Assembly: GCA_026025795.1 (NCBI GenBank)
Contig: JAPEUG010000101.1
Coordinates: 1-46,711 of the forward strand
DNA from: Thelocarpon superellum
Taxonomy: Eukaryota
Direction: 5' to 3'
DNA: 46,711 bases
Below, piece by piece: positions 6,279-44,640 of this stretch (its first letter is position 1; each line of letters opens with the position of its first letter). The position numbers and the translations under genes are program-made. Under the pieces are notes generated by a model. It was not told the DNA's origin, did not search any database, and worked only from the letters and a program-made list of their open reading frames with translations.

Positions 6279-9200
6279 ATGGCGCCCCTACCGCCGGCCT
6301 CCCGTCGGCCAGTCTCCTCTCTGAGTCGGAATCGGGGACGAGGGAGACCTCGAGCGCGGCCCGGCGCGTCATCAGCCGCGCATCCAGGCGGGCCCAACGG
6401 CTCGGCCCCACCACCTATGAAGAAGAGACGATACATTCCTGGAGGTCCCGGTGGCGGTGGCCGTTATGTCGACGTGGATGGCACCGAGACTCCAGTTGGA
6501 GGCACCGGTCCGGGGGGGTATGCGTACGCAGGAGTGAGGGCTCGCGTCGGACGGGAAAGCCGAGCAAATGGAAGCAACGCCGCCCACCCACCGACCTATT
6601 CACGTCGGAGAGAGCGAACGGCCCCGCAACCACGATACAGCTCTGCCGCAGCGGCCGCGGCAGCCGTCACGCAAGGAGATGGATACAAACCACGCGAGGA
6701 GCGGGGATGGGAAGAATTTCACCCGGATCTTGATATCGAGGCACGCTTCCCCATCTACTCCTCCCACGAGGTCGACGGGACCGCGCTAGCCACGAGGACC
6801 GCCACGCCGCCCGCACCTCACGAAGCCTCTACACAAGAGGAGACGCGAGCCACCCCCACTGCAAACGGCATGAATGGGCACCGGACGCCGAATGGAGACA
6901 CCTCGATGCCTTCGCCCCAGCCGGCCGTGACCAATGGAACGAGCGTGGAAGAGCCAGCACAGGCCGAGTCAACTGAGATCCTCTACGTTGAGCCCAAGCG
7001 AAAGCGCGCAGGTCGTCCGATCCGGCGCTCCGAACTTCTACTTCACGAGCCCGCTACCCCCGAAACCCCCAAAATCATTCCTCCTCCCGGTCCGAACCCC
7101 CGCGAGAGACTCACCCTCCCCAAGCCCTCCTTTCGCCGCACCGATCCCTTCTCCTTCTTCGAATCCAAAGCCACAGGACAGCAACGCTATGTCGACCGGA
7201 CCATGGCCAACGTCGGCTATCAAGAGAGCGACATCTTCCTCCGGCCCGTGTCGCGACTGATTCGCGTCGCCGAGGGAAGCATGGAGGAAGATCTCGATCT
7301 CGGTCCCGGCTTCGGCGCCGACGGCGAGCACAACACAGCGTTGGGAGGTAGCGGCGTGGGCCGGGTGGAGTATGACATGGACGAGCAAGACGACAAGTGG
7401 TTGGCCGTTTACAATGCGCTGCGAAAGACGGCGGAAGTCGAACCCATCACGCGCGAAGTGTTTGAGATCACCATGACCAAGATCGAGAAGGAATGGCACG
7501 CCTTGGAGAAAAGTGGGTAGCCTTCCAAGCACCGAGGCCATAAAACGGTCCGCTAACGTGCATGGCCTTCCGCAGGGATCCCCAAGCCCAATCCCAAACC
7601 TCCACAAACGCATCGACCCCGATCGAGTTCCGCCGCCGCCGTTAATGGCGAACCCTCCAGTGCCGCTGGCGAAGAGCAGGATAGCAAGTGTGCCATCTGC
7701 GATGACGGTGACTGCGAGAACACCAACGCCATCGTCTTCTGCGATGGCTGTGACTTGGCCGTGCATCAGGAATGCTATGGCGTACCCTTCATCCCCGAAG
7801 GACAATGGCTGTGTCGCAAATGCCAACTGATCGGTCGGGGAACACCGGTACGTGCAACACGAAAAGGCGATGCGAACCCGCGACTTGACTGATGTCTTTA
7901 GACTTGCATCTTCTGCCCCAACATCGACGGCGCCTTCAAGCAGACCAACTCCTCCCGATGGTCTCATCTCCTCTGCGCCATTTGGATTCCGGAAGTCTCC
8001 CTGGGCAATCCTACATTCATGGAGCCCGTCATGGACGTGGAAAAGGTGCCTCGACAGCGCTGGAAACTGGTTTGTCCTCCGCGCCTCGCTCCTGCCTCTA
8101 CCTGTCGTCTCTTGCTCTAGCTGACGCATGAATGTGAAAGACCTGCTACATCTGTCGACAGCGGATGGGTGCTTGCATTCAATGTGGCAACAAGCAATGC
8201 TTCGTCGCCTTCCATGTGACGTGCGCACGACGGGCGCATCTCTTCCTCAAGATGAAATCCAGCCACGGAGGACCAGCGACGCTTGACGCGGGGGTCTTGA
8301 AGGCCTACTGCGACAAGCATGTTCCCGCCGAGTGGCGCCGTGACAATGACGTCGATGCCGCCACGACCGACGCCCAAGCCTTCTACCACCATACGATGCG
8401 AGGCCGGCTCTGGGCCGACAGTCAGCACTCGGCGCTGTCGTACATCCCCTCGGCCTCCGAGACGGCGCCGACGACGGCCGAGACGCCTGGTCCTTCGACG
8501 GTGGCGCGGATCAATCTCGCCATGGGCAGTAACAAGCGCCGGCGCCCACAGCCCGCCGCCACGACGTGGAAGCTCCCGTCCGGCGCGCCCGTCATCCCCC
8601 AGGTCGTGTACAACTCGGTCGAGAGCTCGTTGCAGCGCTTCATGATCCGTAAGCGGAAGGAATACGCGGCCGAGGCCTGCAAGTACTGGACGTTGAAGCG
8701 TGAGGCGCGACGGGGGGCGGCCTTGCTCAAGCGGCTGCAGCTTCAGATGGAGACCTTCTCGTCTATGGAGATGACACGGCGCAATTTTGCCGGCATGGGC
8801 GCGGCCGGCCGGCCGCGCTTACAGCGGCGCATCGACTTTGCCACCCGCATGCTTCAGGACGTGGAGCGAGTGCGGCTGCTGTGCAACAAGGTGAAGAAAC
8901 GCGAGCGTGTCAAGCTCGAGAACGTCGAGACGGAAAGAAATGTCATCGACGCCGTCTACTTTCCCATCGCGCCGCTGCTGTGGCCCATCCTGGAGCGCGC
9001 ACAGAGGTCGGTCACGCGTGCCTGCATTCGGTGGTGCGACTGCTAATGCGCTACGGTAGTCTGGACGGAAAAGGCGTGTTCTTGGCTGGCTTTCGTACCG
9101 TGCGGACCAAGCTCGAGGATCGTGGCTACACGTCCGTCGCCCCCTTCTCAACCGATCTAGGCGCCGTCTTTTCCGCCGTTACGGGGCTCGACCTGGTCCC

Positions 9201-39521: not shown

Positions 39522-40189
39522 GGAGGTGGGTGAAGGCGCAGCGTGACAGTTGGGCCGGGAATGTCTCGCTCTCGACGGATAGGCGCAGGGGGAGAGGTTA
39601 CCAAGAGGCCTTTCCTGCAACGATCACTCGATCCAGCTCTGCCCCGGTCGGTCACTGCCGTGTGGCCGTACGAGGAAGCGGAAGGGAGCGTCTTGGTCAA
39701 GCTCGGGGACTCCACGAAAGCTGCCCACGCGAATCCCTAGACCCCAGAGACTGACCCGAGCGATGTCAAGTGCCTCGTCGATAGCTCTCCCAGACTCATC
39801 AGTCATGGCTAACAGGTCTGGAGCAAGATGAGTGCAACATGAAGAATGAAATCCCGTCGTCTGTGCAGCGACTCGGGAGAGGAGACAAAGAGCGTGTCGT
39901 CGCGCTTTGCGTCAGACGGGCTTCGAAGGTCGCATCCGTCGAGAGTAGACTGTCGACCATCGTTCGGAACGGGGGTCGCGTCTGATTGGACGACAACCTC
40001 AACATTTGCCGTCGCTCTCGATCTTGTTGTGGCGACCCCCCGGGAGTCTCCGCATTGACCAACAACATCGGCAATCCGATAGCTGGTGATTACAGGAGCG
40101 CTAGTCTGAGCTGGATGGGATCTCTGTTGATATTGATGGTGAGGTAGTGGACGGTGGATCTGCTCCGTGATAGGGTCGTCGTCCTCACG

Positions 40190-40990
40190 ATGTCGTCGCT
40201 CCGACCCTTCCACCCACTTGACCTCTTCAAGTGCAACCTCACGAACCTCGACAGCCTGACCGAGAACTACGACATTGGCTTCTACCTCTCTTATCTCGCC
40301 CGTTGGCCCTCCCTCTTTACCGTGGTGGAGGGTCAGCGAGGAGAAATCAACGCGTATAGTATGTCCAACTTTCCTCTCCCACCGCCTCCCCCTTCCCTCC
40401 CCACCTCCTCCCAATCGACTACCCTGCTGCATCTACACATTCGCACACTAACGCGCACGACCAACGCCACAGTCATGGGTAAACTCGAGTCATCTCCAGC
40501 GGGATACCAACACTCGCAGCACTATTTGCCCTGGCACGCCCACATCACCGCCTTGACGGTAGCACCGGCGTCGCGACGACTGGGGCTGGCCCGTCTCCTC
40601 ACACAGAGTCTCGAGCGCGCCGGCGATCAGTACAACGCGTGGTTCGTTGACCTGTTTGTTCGCGAGAGCAACAAGGTCGCGACGGGCATGTATAGAGGCA
40701 TGGGGTATGTAGTCGTTCTCCGAGCCACCGAGCTTCTTCACCAGTCCACCTTGGTTCGACATAGCTACCTTTCCTCATACCCTCCAACATACATGACTGA
40801 TCATTGTCTTTGCACCCACAGGTACAGCGTCTTCAGACGCGTCGTCGGCTACTACAGCGATGATCCGACGGGAAAAGCGAGCGGCGAGGACGCCTTTGAC
40901 ATGCGGAAGCCGCTGGCGCGTGATAAGACGCTCAAGCATATCCGCGAGCGTGGCGAGGATCATAGAGTGTGGCCGGAGGACGTGTGGTAG
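40190..40990 (+). CDS. NAT3: N-terminal acetyltransferase B catalytic subunit (Nat3/NAA20, GNAT)
   Basis: Exons 40190-40358, 40473-40704, 40822-40990. NLDSLTENY, YLARWP, MGKLE, PWHAHITALTVAPASRRLGLA, FVDLFVRESN, GYSVFRRVVGYY, EDAFDMRKPL. Confidence 0.96.
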   Translation: MSSLRPFHPLDLFKCNLTNLDSLTENYDIGFYLSYLARWPSLFTVVEGQRGEINAYSMSNFPLPPPPPSLPTSSQSTTLLHLHIRTLTRTTNATVMGKLESSPAGYQHSQHYLPWHAHITALTVAPASRRLGLARLLTQSLERAGDQYNAWFVDLFVRESNKVATGMYRGMGYVVVLRATELLHQSTLVRHSYLSSYPPTYMTDHCLCTHRYSVFRRVVGYYSDDPTGKASGEDAFDMRKPLARDKTLKHIRERGEDHRVWPEDVW

Positions 40991-41229
40991 TTCGTCATCT
41001 GGGCGATCCTTGTGGCATGGGCAGGACATACATCTGTACCTTAGCGGGCGTTTCGTTGTTTCGACGCACCACAATGACACTCAATTCTACGACCGTCCAG
41101 TTCTACTCCTGCTCTTACGGTGCAAAGGTCTCGAAACACAAAAGCTTGTCGTACTGCCACGACCTATCCTATTGCTAACTACCGCGATGGTCGATGGCAA
41201 AGGACGCTGGCATTACACCCACCCCTTGA

Positions 41230-41854
41230 CCCCCGAAGCCGAGAAACAGATGGTTTGCCAGACCAACTGCTGGCTGCGCAGGGACACGAGGAAGATATGA
41301 GACCAACGCCCCTCCCCCCTTCGATCGATCGAACACAAGGAAAAAGCAAACGCATCGCTGGCATTAACCCACCCCCCGGAGCCGCGCAACGATTGGGTTG
41401 CCAGACCAATCGCTGGCTCCGCAGGGGGGGCGAACACGCCGCCCAAAAAGACGAACCAAGGAGACGGCCCCCCGGAGCCGAGGAACGGTTGACTTGCCAG
41501 GCCAACCGTTGGCCCCGGCGGGGCCCACACGGTGACAAAAAGGAATGAGAGAGAAGGAGAGACAGAGGAAACGACCCCCCGGAGCCGCGAAGCGGTTGGT
41601 TTGCCAGACCAACCACTGGATCCGGCGGGGCCCACAAGGCAAACCAGGGCCAAGGAAATGACAAAAGGAAACGCCCCCCAAAGCCGCGAAACGGATGGCT
41701 TGCCACACCATCCGTTGGCTTCGCAAGGGCAAAAACGCCCAAAGAATAGGACCAAGGAAAGACAAAGAAAAAACAAAGGAAAGCGGGAGCACACTTGTCC
41801 CCGGAGTCACGAAACGAATGGCTTGCCGGACCATCCGCCGACTCCGCAGGGGCA
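41230..41854 (-). repeat. Array of six diverged ~55-60 nt stem-loop repeats separated by variable U-rich spacers (putative structured-RNA cis-element array)
   Basis: Copies at ~41230-41283, 41372-41430, 41466-41525, 41575-41630, 41673-41730, 41796-41854. Plus-strand consensus ccccGGAGCC-gcgaaa-CGGWTGGy-TTGCCAG-ACCAWCCG-yt-GGCTCC-gcagggg, with compensatory substitutions in the stems. Confidence 0.88.
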
Positions 41855-42002
41855 GGCATGCTCCCTAGAACAAAACAAAACAACAAAGGAAAGAAATCCC
41901 CCTCCCCCGCTCCCTCCCCCACCCCATCGAGCCCTTCCTCTGATGAAGCTTGGCGCGAGCAAGAGCACCTGGCCCGCATCGCTCCACACACCTCCGGCTC
42001 CC

Positions 42003-43847
42003 CTAACCGGAGGTGATGGAGGCGACGTGCACCAGGCGCTGCTGCCCGCCCATCTTCACCATCACCACCAACTGCTGGACCCCCTCGCCGGGATCGGCGA
42101 GCTCCCCGTCCACGCCGGGCGGCAGCGTCCAGGCCTCCAGCTTGATGCCGGCGGCGTTGGACGGTGACGCCGGCGTGGCACGCGGCGAGCCCGCCGGCCT
42201 GGCGAGACCCAGCAAGAAGTCCAGGCCGCAGGTCGGACACGAGATTGCCAGTCTCGTGCCCGTCTGCGCCGCGTGGAGCGACACTGTCCGCCGAAGATTG
42301 GCCAGACAGTGCGCGTGGGCCGGCTCGATGGCGAGCGACTCGTCGACGGCCCCGTCCGTCGCCGCGTCGCTCTGGTCAGGACGCCCCTCGGACGCCTTGG
42401 CCAGGACCGCAGACGGAGAAGAGCGCCCACCGAGGCACTTCTCCCGCTGAATCATCCGGGGGAATCGCCAGAAACCCCCCGATGGCTCCCTCGGAGCCGA
42501 CGCCTTGGACGGAGTCTGGGACGCCGAAGTCAAATGAGCCCGAAGGCTCACCTCGGACGCCGTCCCGACGTCAGACGCCCGCGCCGCCGGCCCGCTGGAC
42601 GGCCCGAACCTGGGCCCCTCGGTCGGACGAGTGGCCTCGCCCAGACCCCTCTTCCGCCCGAGAAAGTCGGGTTCAAAGACCCCTAGTCGCTGCGCGAAGG
42701 TCGGCTTTGCCAGAGCCGCCTTCGACACGAGCGGCGTGGGGGCCGCGGGGGTGTCAAGCCCGATGGACGGGTGGCCGACGCTGCCGTCGGCCACGGCCAA
42801 CCGGTCTTGACACGCGTTGCACAACCAATGGTAGCAACGCAGGCACATCAGACTCGTCGTCTGACTGCAGCAGGCGGCCTGGCAGGCCGCCCGCACCACG
42901 GGGGTCTTCAGCTCATCTCTCGCCACAAGAGATGACCGAAGGAAGCCGTCGACCCGCTCCCGGGTCGTGCTGGGTGGGGGCGCCGGCGTCGTGCCCGGGG
43001 CCGAAGAGGTGACTGGGGCCGCCACCGAAGGACAGCGACCCCCCGACGGTCCCGCGGGCGGCGCCGGGCGAACGGCCTGCCGCTGTTGCCGCTTGGGTGG
43101 CACCAGCGGCCGGGACTCCTCCACCCGCGTCCACACCCGCTTCTTGGCCGCACTGATGCCCTGTTAGCGGATCTCGCGCAAAAAGCACGGGGGCTCGCCA
43201 GCTTACCCGCCAAATTGAGACTCCAGGAGCCTCACCCGGTCCTTGATCGCTCCATTGAGCGGCGGGAAGTGGGAGAACCGCATCCCGGTCCGGACGTCCG
43301 ACGGGATCTGGCGGTATGAGAACCCATCGAACGGTTTCCCCAACATGCAGTTGTTGTAGTGCGACGAGTGGGGCACGTGGATGGAGGAGAGCGCCCGGTG
43401 ATCGTGGCGGAATTTCTCGGCGATACCCTTGGGGTTGGCCAGCCATTCGTACGGCTTCGTCCCGTATGGGAGGGAGGCCCGCTGGCCTCGTCGCTCGAAG
43501 CTTGCCACGCGGTTGATCACCGTGCCGTTGGACTGTTCCGAGATTGCCTCGGAGACAGCGCGGGGATGTTCGATGAACGTGCTCATCCGTTCGCGCAGGG
43601 AGGGCGCCGTGTTGGATCGCGTGCGACGACTGGAGTCAGCTTGCGCTGTTGCATCGAGCCAGGTTTTCGACCGCTCAAAGGCTTGGACCCGAGAAGCCAC
43701 GTATCCGGGCTTGATCGAGGCCGCCGACGAAGATGGTGGGCCGCCCGGACGCTCGATCGCTTCAACCCGAGCCACGACGGAGCCAGACTTGTTGGATGCC
43801 TCGGACTGCGAAAGCGGCGAGACTCGTCGGCTGGAAACGTGCGACAT
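42003..43847 (-). CDS. Orphan ~596-aa protein with repeated VxxRVxxFE-like motifs and Cys-rich (Zn-finger-like) segments
   Basis: ATG 43847. Exon 1 43847-43207, intron 43206-43153 (GTAAGC...GCTAAC...CAG), exon 2 43152-42003; the splice fuses two long ORFs in frame. Contains CQAACC-x7-CLRC-x4-CNAC and HAHC...CPTC. No family recognised. Confidence 0.65.
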
Positions 43848-44204
43848 CGTGCCAGAGAAGTGGAGAGTGGATGTCGCGTGGGAAGACGGGAGAGATGAAT
43901 CGAGCTTCTGCGGAGCTGAATGCGGCCGCGATGTGGAGATCCACGTGAAGAACCGACGCGCGAAAAGGCGACGAGCGGAGAGAGGATGTTTGAGGAGACG
44001 GCGTATGAGGAGCCAGGAAGACGCGACGCTAGAGGCGAGGCGGAAAAATGACGTGAGAAGAGGCGTCGTGAGAGAGGTATAGGAGACACGAAGTCGGGAG
44101 TGACTTCTCGAGGAGGGACGTTCGGAGTAGAACGTGTACGGCGGCAATGCGTACGATGATGAGTTCCAAAATACGTGACGCACACAGAGGCAGAATGCGG
44201 TTCC

Positions 44205-44640
44205 GACGCGTAGAGAGATGATGCGGAGGGGGCGTACGATCTCGGCGGATGGAAAGGCAACGGGCAGAGAATGTTCACACGAGGCAGGCGTAACCAGGTA
44301 ACGAGTCCACAATGGCGTTGCGGAAGACGTAGATGGATGGGAGAAGGCTGCGTGCGGACACGATGCGTGGAGGATGAAGGTACGTATAGTCTCGGAGGCT
44401 GAGGAGACGACGTGGAGAGGATGGCGATGCGTGTGATCTCGGGAAAAGATGAGACGACGCGGAGAGGATATTCACACGAGGTAGGTATAAACAAACAACA
44501 AAGTCCACAGTGGCGGTGCGGAAGACGGCGATGGATGGAGACTCTGCGTATGGAGACGATGCGCAGAGGACGAAGATGCGTGTGGTCTCGAAGAATGAAG
44601 AGACGACGCGTACACAGTTGATGCGTGCGAAGAGAATCTG
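44205..44640. repeat. Diverged ~200-bp tandem duplication (two copies plus partial third)
   Basis: gagaatgttcacacgaggcagg...agtccacaatggcgttgcggaagacgtagatggatgg (~44267-44340) versus gaggatattcacacgaggtagg...agtccacagtggcggtgcggaagacggcgatggatgg (~44465-44538); both units end ...gtctcg...gagacgacg. Confidence 0.8.

Follow-up and report, generated by a model that had tools for sequence, protein, structure and literature searches.

The closest described counterparts of the RNA element considered here are the Smaug/Vts1 recognition elements (SREs), hairpins that are bound through their loops by the SAM domain of Smaug/Vts1 proteins. The element itself is an array of six hairpins at positions 41227-41854 of a 46,711-nt stretch of DNA, hereafter the window (GenBank contig JAPEUG010000101.1), from the filamentous ascomycete Thelocarpon superellum; it adjoins an orphan gene, that is, a gene for whose product no homologue was found. 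The SRE is described as a loop of consensus CNGGN0-3 on a non-specific stem, of which the SAM domain touches the loop and the 5' side of the stem, leaving the 3' part of the loop uncontacted (PMC4053848). According to the same source, CUGG is the best start of the loop, a G before the loop is preferred over A, C and U, and loops of 5 nt are bound best, with a gradual fall for longer loops (PMC4053848). Vts1 is reported to bind loops of 4-5 nt with a G at position 3 and complementary positions 1 and 4 (PMC2683727), the ligands selected by Vts1 carry a strong G:C top pair (PMC3045596), and the yeast SRE in the Vts1 structures is the pentaloop uCUGGCa (PMC2275152). Several SREs can reside in one message: two are described in the 3' untranslated region (UTR) of nanos and eight in the open reading frame (ORF) of Hsp83 (PMC4053848). 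A Vts1 with a SAM domain is present in Magnaporthe, and the same source describes the protein as conserved among filamentous fungi (bioRxiv 10.1101/2023.08.19.553964).

It is rare for a natural message to contain a single structured protein-docking site in many copies, and where this occurs, as in nanos, Hsp83 and the bacterial sponge RNAs, post-transcriptional control tends to be strong and switch-like. Sponge RNAs of the CsrB/RsmY/RsmZ type present GGA loops that are bound by CsrA/RsmA. By analogy, the Thelocarpon array shares with them a row of hairpins with the same loop, unstructured linkers and a potential for multivalent capture of one protein; however, they are bacterial small RNAs, whereas the array comes from a eukaryote, displays another loop and is attached to a coding message, so that the two do not belong to the same family. 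A second analogy is offered by the A-repeat of Xist, a mammalian long non-coding RNA whose reader is SPEN. GC-rich hairpin cores, pyrimidine/U-rich spacers and the idea of a protein-recruitment platform are common to both, but the core, the loop and the reader are different and no homology is implied.

In this work, fold prediction, analysis of covariation among the array copies and searches for related elements were applied to this single locus in one metagenome-assembled genome. A first-pass annotation, made by a model from the letters of the window, had proposed that the hairpins are SRE-like sites in the 3' UTR of the orphan gene. Our analysis confirms the hairpins and their covariation, the invariance of the loop, and the link of the hairpins to the sense strand of a single orphan mRNA. 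Two additional hairpins with the same loop are located in the coding region of the gene, and all eight probably serve jointly as a multivalent docking platform whose loops are recognized by a single reader. The SAM domain of Vts1/Smaug is put forward, tentatively, as that reader.

Fold, strand and covariation of the array

The array consists of six diverged tandem copies of a bulged inverted-repeat hairpin of approximately 60 nt, with distances of 96-143 nt from start to start. All six are described on the minus strand. The loop CUGGCAA occurs at 41255-41261 in copy 1 (41227..41286), at 41494-41500 in copy 3 (41466..41525), where it is closed by a C-G pair, and at 41601-41607 in copy 4 (41573..41632). 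In copy 2 (41370..41429), the same heptamer (41398-41404) lies within a larger loop of 9 nt with a closing U.C mismatch. Copy 5 (41672..41731) lacks the C at the first loop position (GUGGCAA, 41700-41706), and copy 6 (41795..41854) contains the loop CCGGCAA at 41823-41829. The loop consensus of the array is YNGGCAA, and the pentamer GGCAA is invariant in all six copies. The first-pass annotation had listed the same copies with the same loops. Tandem Repeats Finder left the array unlisted, since its copies share only 74% identity and their spacing is uneven; a separate repeat search did list it.

A common fold is predicted for the minus strand of all copies: an outer helix of 4-6 bp, a bulge of 1-3 nt on the 5' side, about 16 bp with a bulge of 4 nt on the 3' side, and the 7-nt loop at the top. 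Counted with the small bulges, the array stems extend over about 22-24 bp. The folds of the six copies are more stable than those of dinucleotide shuffles (z from -2.3 to -4.3), copy 3 reaching -45.9 kcal/mol with a z of -4.26, and when the entire 903 nt that follow the stop codon of the orphan gene are folded at minimum energy, all six array hairpins are present. Ensemble probabilities of the loops were computed in a context of +/-100 nt. The exact 7-nt loop has a probability of 0.63-0.93 in seven of the eight hairpins, namely five array copies (0.81 in copy 1) and both coding-region hairpins; in the exceptional copy 2, the probability of the exact 7-nt loop is 0.00, and that of the seven nucleotides being unpaired is 0.50.

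The fold energies, the pairing, the wobble pairs and the layout of the genes all point to the minus strand, which is the sense strand of the orphan gene, as the functional one. The minus-strand fold is more stable than the plus-strand fold by 3.7-9.4 kcal/mol in each of the six copies. When the pairs of the common structure are tabulated over the six copies, 91.0% of the cells hold standard pairs on the minus strand, whereas the mirror structure of the plus strand reaches 81.9%. Among the cells that are not Watson-Crick pairs, there are 14 G.U on the minus strand versus a single A.C. Since the hairpins are rich in G and U, the null expectation for this comparison was corrected to 0.63, after which the G.U excess is still significant, though less striking, with a p of 0.014 when counted by cells and of 0.04 when each pair column is counted once. 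The first-pass annotation had also chosen the minus strand, and its choice is borne out by both the folds and the wobble pairs.

The same annotation had noted that the stems vary while GGCAA stays fixed, and compensatory changes account for how the pairing is kept. Standard pairs occupy 131 of the 144 pair cells on the minus strand (91.0%), as compared with 85.0 +/- 1.4% when the 3' partners are shuffled within the six-copy alignment, and none of 500 shuffles reaches the observed value. In seven of the 24 pairs (11 cells), both sides have changed with the pairing kept; the shuffles give 2.9 +/- 1.2 such pairs, and again none of 500 is as high. When the 3' partners are slid by 1-3 columns, pairing drops to 33-55%. 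Rows that are paralogous to each other can exceed such shuffles even where no structure exists, a caveat that touches neither the both-side changes nor the slid-partner control.

Conservation is concentrated in the hairpins and, within them, in the loop. Pairwise identity is 74% for the hairpins versus 42% for the five spacers, which are 36-83 nt long each and lie within 41287..41794, a range that also spans copies 2-5. Invariant columns make up five of the seven loop positions versus one of the 16 other unpaired positions (Fisher p = 0.003). Thus, several measures say that the hairpin array goes beyond what chance or shared descent would leave. The covariation in excess of shuffles, the contrast of 74% and 42% identity, and the formation of all six hairpins within the 903-nt fold argue that the stem structure is under selection.

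The spacers themselves are pyrimidine-rich on the minus strand in four cases (67-83% pyrimidine), versus 54% in the 83-nt spacer. The heptamer UCCUUGG is found in three of the five spacers (41430-41794, minus strand) and UCCUUGU in a fourth. It may be a linear motif in addition to the hairpins, or it may simply follow from the pyrimidine-rich composition.

Coding-region hairpins and the shared loop heptamer

Two hairpins with the loop CUGGCAA are located in the coding region of the orphan gene, both on its sense strand. Hairpin B (42227..42268, minus strand) has an apical helix of 11 bp and a lower helix of 5 bp, with the loop at 42245-42251 (probability of the exact loop, 0.70). Hairpin A (42688..42733, minus strand) has an apical helix of 5 bp followed by a 1-nt bulge and further pairs, with the loop at 42707-42713 (probability 0.77) and a z of -3.26. 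In both, the stems comprise at least 16 bp and the loop is read in frame as CUG-GCA-A, encoding Leu-Ala-Lys in hairpin A and Leu-Ala-Ile in hairpin B. The stems of both hairpins are unrelated to the array stems, and therefore neither can be a copy of the array unit. The two were found in different ways: hairpin B came from a scan for loops of 4-8 nt that start with C-N-G-G and have at least 6 closing pairs, whereas hairpin A came from a scan for NNGGCAA loops, so that its CAA is there by construction.

CTGGCAA occurs 11 times on the two strands of the window, versus 5.9 occurrences expected. It forms a hairpin loop (of 7 or 9 nt) in all six of its occurrences on the sense strand of the orphan gene and its tail, and in none of the five elsewhere (p = 0.002). 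For the broader class of hairpins with NNGGCAA loops, 10 are present in the whole window, as compared with a mean of 4.1 and a maximum of 10 in 200 shuffles, the most extreme of which equals the observed count; eight of the 10 fall within 1.5 kb on one strand. The signal of the NNGGCAA hairpins is their clustering and not their whole-window count. The other two, on the plus strand at 44143 (GCGGCAA, 7-bp stem) and 46138 (GGGGCAA, 8-bp stem), are within the shuffle expectation. Because the loop columns are more invariant than the other unpaired columns, because hairpins with unrelated stems share CUGGCAA, and because the heptamer is looped in six of six cases versus none of five, we conclude that the loop itself is selected.

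A covariance model of the array hairpin (R1) was run over the window and recovered the six copies with scores of 75-87 bits, but no other convincing match. One further match, at 6613-6673 (19 bits), was rejected since it has no GGCAA loop. A GC-rich palindrome at 42868-42900, which has a weak plus-strand R1 score of 15.7 bits, was considered as a hairpin whose loop might be complementary to the array loops and rejected: on the sense strand it forms a 3-nt loop with a z of only -1.26.

Candidate readers of the loop and competing explanations

The mechanism that we tentatively favour joins the eight hairpins to one protein. The sense transcript of the orphan gene would contain two hairpins in its coding region and six tandem ones in a long 3' UTR, each presenting the loop YNGGCAA on a long stable stem. 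Together, the eight loops would offer multivalent docking, in cis, for one loop-specific reader; among known proteins, the SAM domain of a putative Vts1/Smaug orthologue in this fungus is the best candidate. Vts1/Smaug binds hairpin loops headed by CNGG and recruits the Ccr4-Pop2-Not deadenylase, and the outcome here would be a message that is strongly repressed or rapidly degraded or, alternatively, one that acts as a high-capacity sink for Vts1/Smaug. Both the binding of a protein and its consequences are what we infer from the sequence and its predicted fold. While the docking of one reader is probable, its identification with Vts1/Smaug is less secure; Vts1/Smaug is the best-named candidate, with another reader of the whole heptaloop close behind.

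Several properties of the hairpins agree with the published SRE. The loop consensus CNGGN0-3 is formally matched by seven of the eight hairpins, as the first-pass annotation had proposed for the array; copy 5 (GUGG) does not match, and in copy 2 the CNGG is one base inside the 9-nt loop. The prototype CUGGC is present in six of the eight and UCUGGCA in four. A U, the best base at the second loop position of an SRE, occupies that position in seven, and a G at position 3 with complementary positions 1 and 4 is likewise found in seven. All eight stems have at least 4 bp, the apical helices being 5-11 bp and the whole stems longer. The SREs of nanos, Hsp83 and the yeast Vts1 targets are similar in placing C-N-G-G at the start of a loop on a non-specific stem, in occurring several per message (up to eight) and in using both ORF and 3' UTR. 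The earlier count of five SRE-like sites in the array stands only in part: under the strict requirement that a closed loop start with C-N-G-G, copies 1, 3, 4 and 6 qualify, copy 2 is borderline and copy 5 does not qualify, and two more sites have to be added from the coding region.

Other properties weigh against the SRE mechanism. The bases C5, A6 and A7 of the loop are invariant in the six array copies, although the consensus leaves the 3' loop bases free; CAA recurs in hairpin B, which came from a scan that asked for CNGG only. As the SAM domain does not contact these invariant 3' bases, the SRE consensus alone fails to explain their conservation. The loops are 7 nt long in seven of the eight hairpins, the upper limit of CNGGN0-3, and 9 nt in copy 2, whereas loops of 4-5 nt are preferred in the published SREs and none is of that length here. 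The preferred G before the loop, which is a preference rather than a requirement, is found in none of the eight (U in six, C in one, A in one), and copy 5 has a G at loop position 1. In contrast to the minimum SRE stem of 4 bp, the bulged stems here extend over about 16-24 bp, far beyond what an SRE needs. Hairpins of the generic CNGG type are not enriched in the window (37 versus 38.6 in shuffles), and only two with stems of at least 6 bp are present in the coding region. The tandem, covarying array of six copies is a feature of this locus and not of the known SREs. Taken as a whole, the hairpins are SRE-like in sequence and predicted fold, from which they depart in the extension of the invariant loop, in the long bulged stems and in their arrangement as a tandem covarying array. 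Of the Smaug/Vts1 mechanism as it had been proposed from the first reading, the formal fit to the consensus, the placement, the strand and the precedents of nanos and Hsp83 were upheld, whereas the invariant CAA, the 7-nt loops, the lack of a preceding G and the absence of generic CNGG enrichment speak against it.

It also counts against the SRE mechanism that the element was found in no relative in the collections scanned. A 29-letter degenerate pattern that fits all six copies gave 14 single matches in a metagenome collection, approximately the number expected by chance, and none in viral contigs. When the 14 were compared with the covariance model, none passed and none was full-length, the best being two identical partial matches of 19 nt (12.2 bits, E 0.7). 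Among the matches listed for the Thelocarpon literature, which by title and opening of the abstract concern taxonomy, surveys and unrelated subjects, there was no work on RNA elements.

If the SRE interpretation is true, no natural cluster of SREs described in a fungus would be denser than this one, which would be a hint that more of the loop is read by Vts1 in filamentous ascomycetes than in yeast. In any case, the locus combines eight sites, a structure backed by covariation and a loop whose conservation extends past the published Smaug/Vts1 consensus.

The strongest competitor, which we consider possible but less so than Vts1/Smaug, is the same docking array with a different reader, one that would recognize all of the heptaloop YNGGCAA and perhaps the long bulged stem as well; the match to CNGG would then be a coincidence. 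It would account for GGCAA in all eight hairpins, including the three bases that the SRE consensus leaves free, and equally for the change in copy 5 at loop position 1, which an SRE requires to be C. The contrast between generic CNGG hairpins, which are unenriched, and the exact heptamer, which is looped in six of six cases versus none of five elsewhere, suggests the same, as do the loop length of 7 nt instead of 4-5 and the absence of the preferred G. A full-text literature search for CUGGCAA/CTGGCAA returned nothing related, and no Rfam family could be assigned: Rfam 15 gave no match at gathering score in the whole window, and the three matches obtained by E-value in 41000-43900 are at chance level (E 0.76-5.3, far below gathering), with none on an array hairpin. 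Against this explanation, an arbitrary conserved loop would start with C-N-G-G by chance only about once in 40-60 cases, the commonest loop contains exactly the prototype CUGGC, and no other candidate reader can be named. In addition, the six array copies are paralogous, and the identity of their loops may be partly inherited and not selected. If this explanation is the true one, the locus would define a new hairpin-loop code.

It is improbable that the hairpins are instead substrates of an RNase III/Dicer-type enzyme, the cut destabilising the message or freeing small RNAs and the loop serving as a positioning signal. The length of the stems (about 22-24 bp in the array, at least 16 bp in the coding region), which is beyond the need of a loop-binding protein, would fit such a role, and yeast Rnt1 does measure its cut from a conserved loop. 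However, the known fungal RNase III loop signal is the AGNN tetraloop, and the hairpins do not have it, so that an Rnt1 signal was rejected. Small-RNA clusters, moreover, keep their arms while the loop drifts, the opposite of what is observed here. The stem-loops cleaved by Ire1 (HAC1/XBP1 type) have a 7-nt loop with C1, G3 and G6. This candidate was also rejected, since position 6 is an A in all eight hairpins.

Equally improbable is the explanation that dispenses with RNA function altogether, in which a palindromic unit of DNA, produced by slippage or of a MITE-like kind, was recently duplicated in tandem and its conservation reflects recent descent. The locus is prone to tandem duplication, with repeats of about 197 nt upstream of the gene; the gene is an orphan and the element was found in no relative; and shuffle controls can overstate structure when the rows are paralogues. 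Against it stand the spacers, which have decayed to 42% identity while the hairpins are still at 74%, the 11 cells at seven pairs that changed on both sides and are still paired, and the non-Watson-Crick pairs, nearly all of which are G.U on one strand. The two coding-region hairpins, with the same loop on unrelated stems, cannot be copies of the unit.

Still less credit is given to mimicry of a tRNA anticodon loop, in which UGGCA would pair with tRNA-Gly(GCC) or the loop would serve as a decoy or capture site for an enzyme directed at tRNA. An anticodon loop has the general pattern of 7 nt with a pyrimidine, U, three bases and A-A, and UGGCA is complementary to positions 33-37 (U-G-C-C-A) of the tRNA-Gly(GCC) loop. 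Six of the eight loops read C-U-GGC-A-A, and UGGCA is present in seven. Against the pairing, the C at loop position 1, found in seven of eight, is left unexplained, no tRNA gene is available in the window for comparison (ARAGORN found neither tRNA nor tmRNA genes there), and no mRNA element that pairs with a tRNA anticodon is known in fungi. As for the enzyme, the tRNA deaminase of filamentous ascomycetes (ADAT, Tad2/Tad3) is reported to carry out A-to-I editing in the loops of stable mRNA hairpins that resemble anticodon loops, with a strong preference for U at position -1 (PMC11156358, PMC9600606). For tRNA enzymes that read hairpins in mRNA, there is thus a precedent among these fungi. The hairpins are similar to its substrates in this respect but differ at the position directly before the target: in all eight, the loop A's follow C and A, and an editing site of the kind described there was therefore rejected. 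If the mimicry were true, it would constitute a new kind of eukaryotic mRNA element that couples the fate of an mRNA for a disordered orphan protein to tRNA status.

Least probable of all is a function on the plus strand, where the loop would read UUGCCAG and the hairpins would form part of a lengthened 3' UTR of the convergent GNAT acetyltransferase gene: the array does start 237 nt past the GNAT stop codon and also folds on that strand (z from -2.3 to -4.0), but the folds are weaker in all six copies, 18% of the cells are unpaired versus 9% on the minus strand, one G.U stands against 14, the two additional hairpins lie inside the coding region of the opposite gene, about 1.3-1.7 kb past the GNAT stop, and a GC minimum that resembles a 3' end precedes the array when read from the GNAT side.

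The orphan gene and its surroundings

The orphan gene (P0004) is encoded on the minus strand in two exons: exon 1 (43207..43847, 641 nt), with the ATG at 43845-43847, and exon 2 (42003..43152, 1150 nt), with the stop codon TAG at 42003-42005. They are separated by an intron of 54 nt (43153..43206), with a GTAAGC donor, the branch GCTAACAG and a CAG acceptor. The deposited hypothetical protein of 596 aa reads exactly across the exon 1/exon 2 junction. The GC content at third codon positions (GC3) is 0.77-0.84 for the gene (0.84 for exon 2), near the 0.83 of eIF3a, and the codon-use score, trained on the small set of two conserved genes in the window, is positive in the frame of the orphan gene only. 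Accordingly, the frame looks coding-like.

No relatives of the encoded protein were found. In Pfam, nothing exceeds the cut-off, the only matches being at E = 0.19 and E = 1.2; in both a word-based search and a full HMMER search over 1.84 billion representatives, the protein itself was the sole match; and no structural look-alike was present in the ESM Atlas, where its model is predicted to be largely disordered (pLDDT 0.38). With a protein predicted to be mostly disordered and without a family match, the suggestion of the first-pass annotation that the gene is selfish or toxic finds no support, while its statement that the array adjoins an orphan gene, downstream of the stop codon, was correct. 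In residues ~24-213, encoded by exon 1, the motif hydrophobic-x-x-R-V-x-x-(F/I/L)-E-(R/S) is repeated three to four times and matches no family. A Cys-rich stretch, C-x3-CC-x8-C-x2-C-x4-C-x2-C, occupies residues ~303-330 (about 42850-42940); it gives a RING-finger match that is sub-threshold only (E = 0.19). The sequence CPTC adjoins coding-region hairpin B.

The array begins 149 nt and ends 776 nt past the stop codon of the orphan gene, and its position and strand suggest that it is part of the 3' UTR of this gene. A G-rich tract with runs of 3-5 G is located on the minus strand between the stop codon and the array (41898..41925) and could form a G-quadruplex. On the far side of the array, between it and the GNAT stop codon at 40990, the GC content falls to a minimum of 47-50% at 41050..41200; this segment may be a 3'-end zone shared by the transcripts of the orphan gene and of the convergent GNAT gene. 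Upstream of the ATG, at 44232-44608, there are tandem direct repeats with units of ~197 nt (71-89% alike) and sub-repeats of ~47 nt. Because this region also consists of tandem repeats, the whole locus looks as if it were shaped by local duplication.

The gene content and introns of the window are those of ordinary nuclear DNA from a filamentous ascomycete. Thelocarpon superellum, a lichen-type fungus, belongs to the order Thelocarpales in the Pezizomycotina, and its genome was assembled from a metagenome. In addition to the orphan gene, the window contains genes for eIF3a, the GNAT acetyltransferase, a mitochondrial carrier with EF-hands, an EPL1/PHD protein, an AAA ATPase and a fragment of a phosphodiesterase; the introns of the window genes are short and have fungal signals.

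Read coverage of the array was compared in four DNA runs. The likely source run (X1) alone covers the array, with one contig of 973 letters over 40936-41865 and no differences, and its Logan contigs break at 41866-41928, across the G-rich tract. The other three, moss-metagenome runs, reach the flanks only: their low-depth contigs match 40100-41017, 41929-42054 and 42902-43300. Since they cover flanking parts only, these runs do not inform on variation of the array. With 0-5 differences per piece in the flanks, the moss-metagenome study seems to have sampled this fungus or a very close one. Finally, the long ORF with the GNAT domain contains a C/T-rich tandem repeat of two 22-nt copies at 40369-40412, which may mark an intron or a low-complexity segment.

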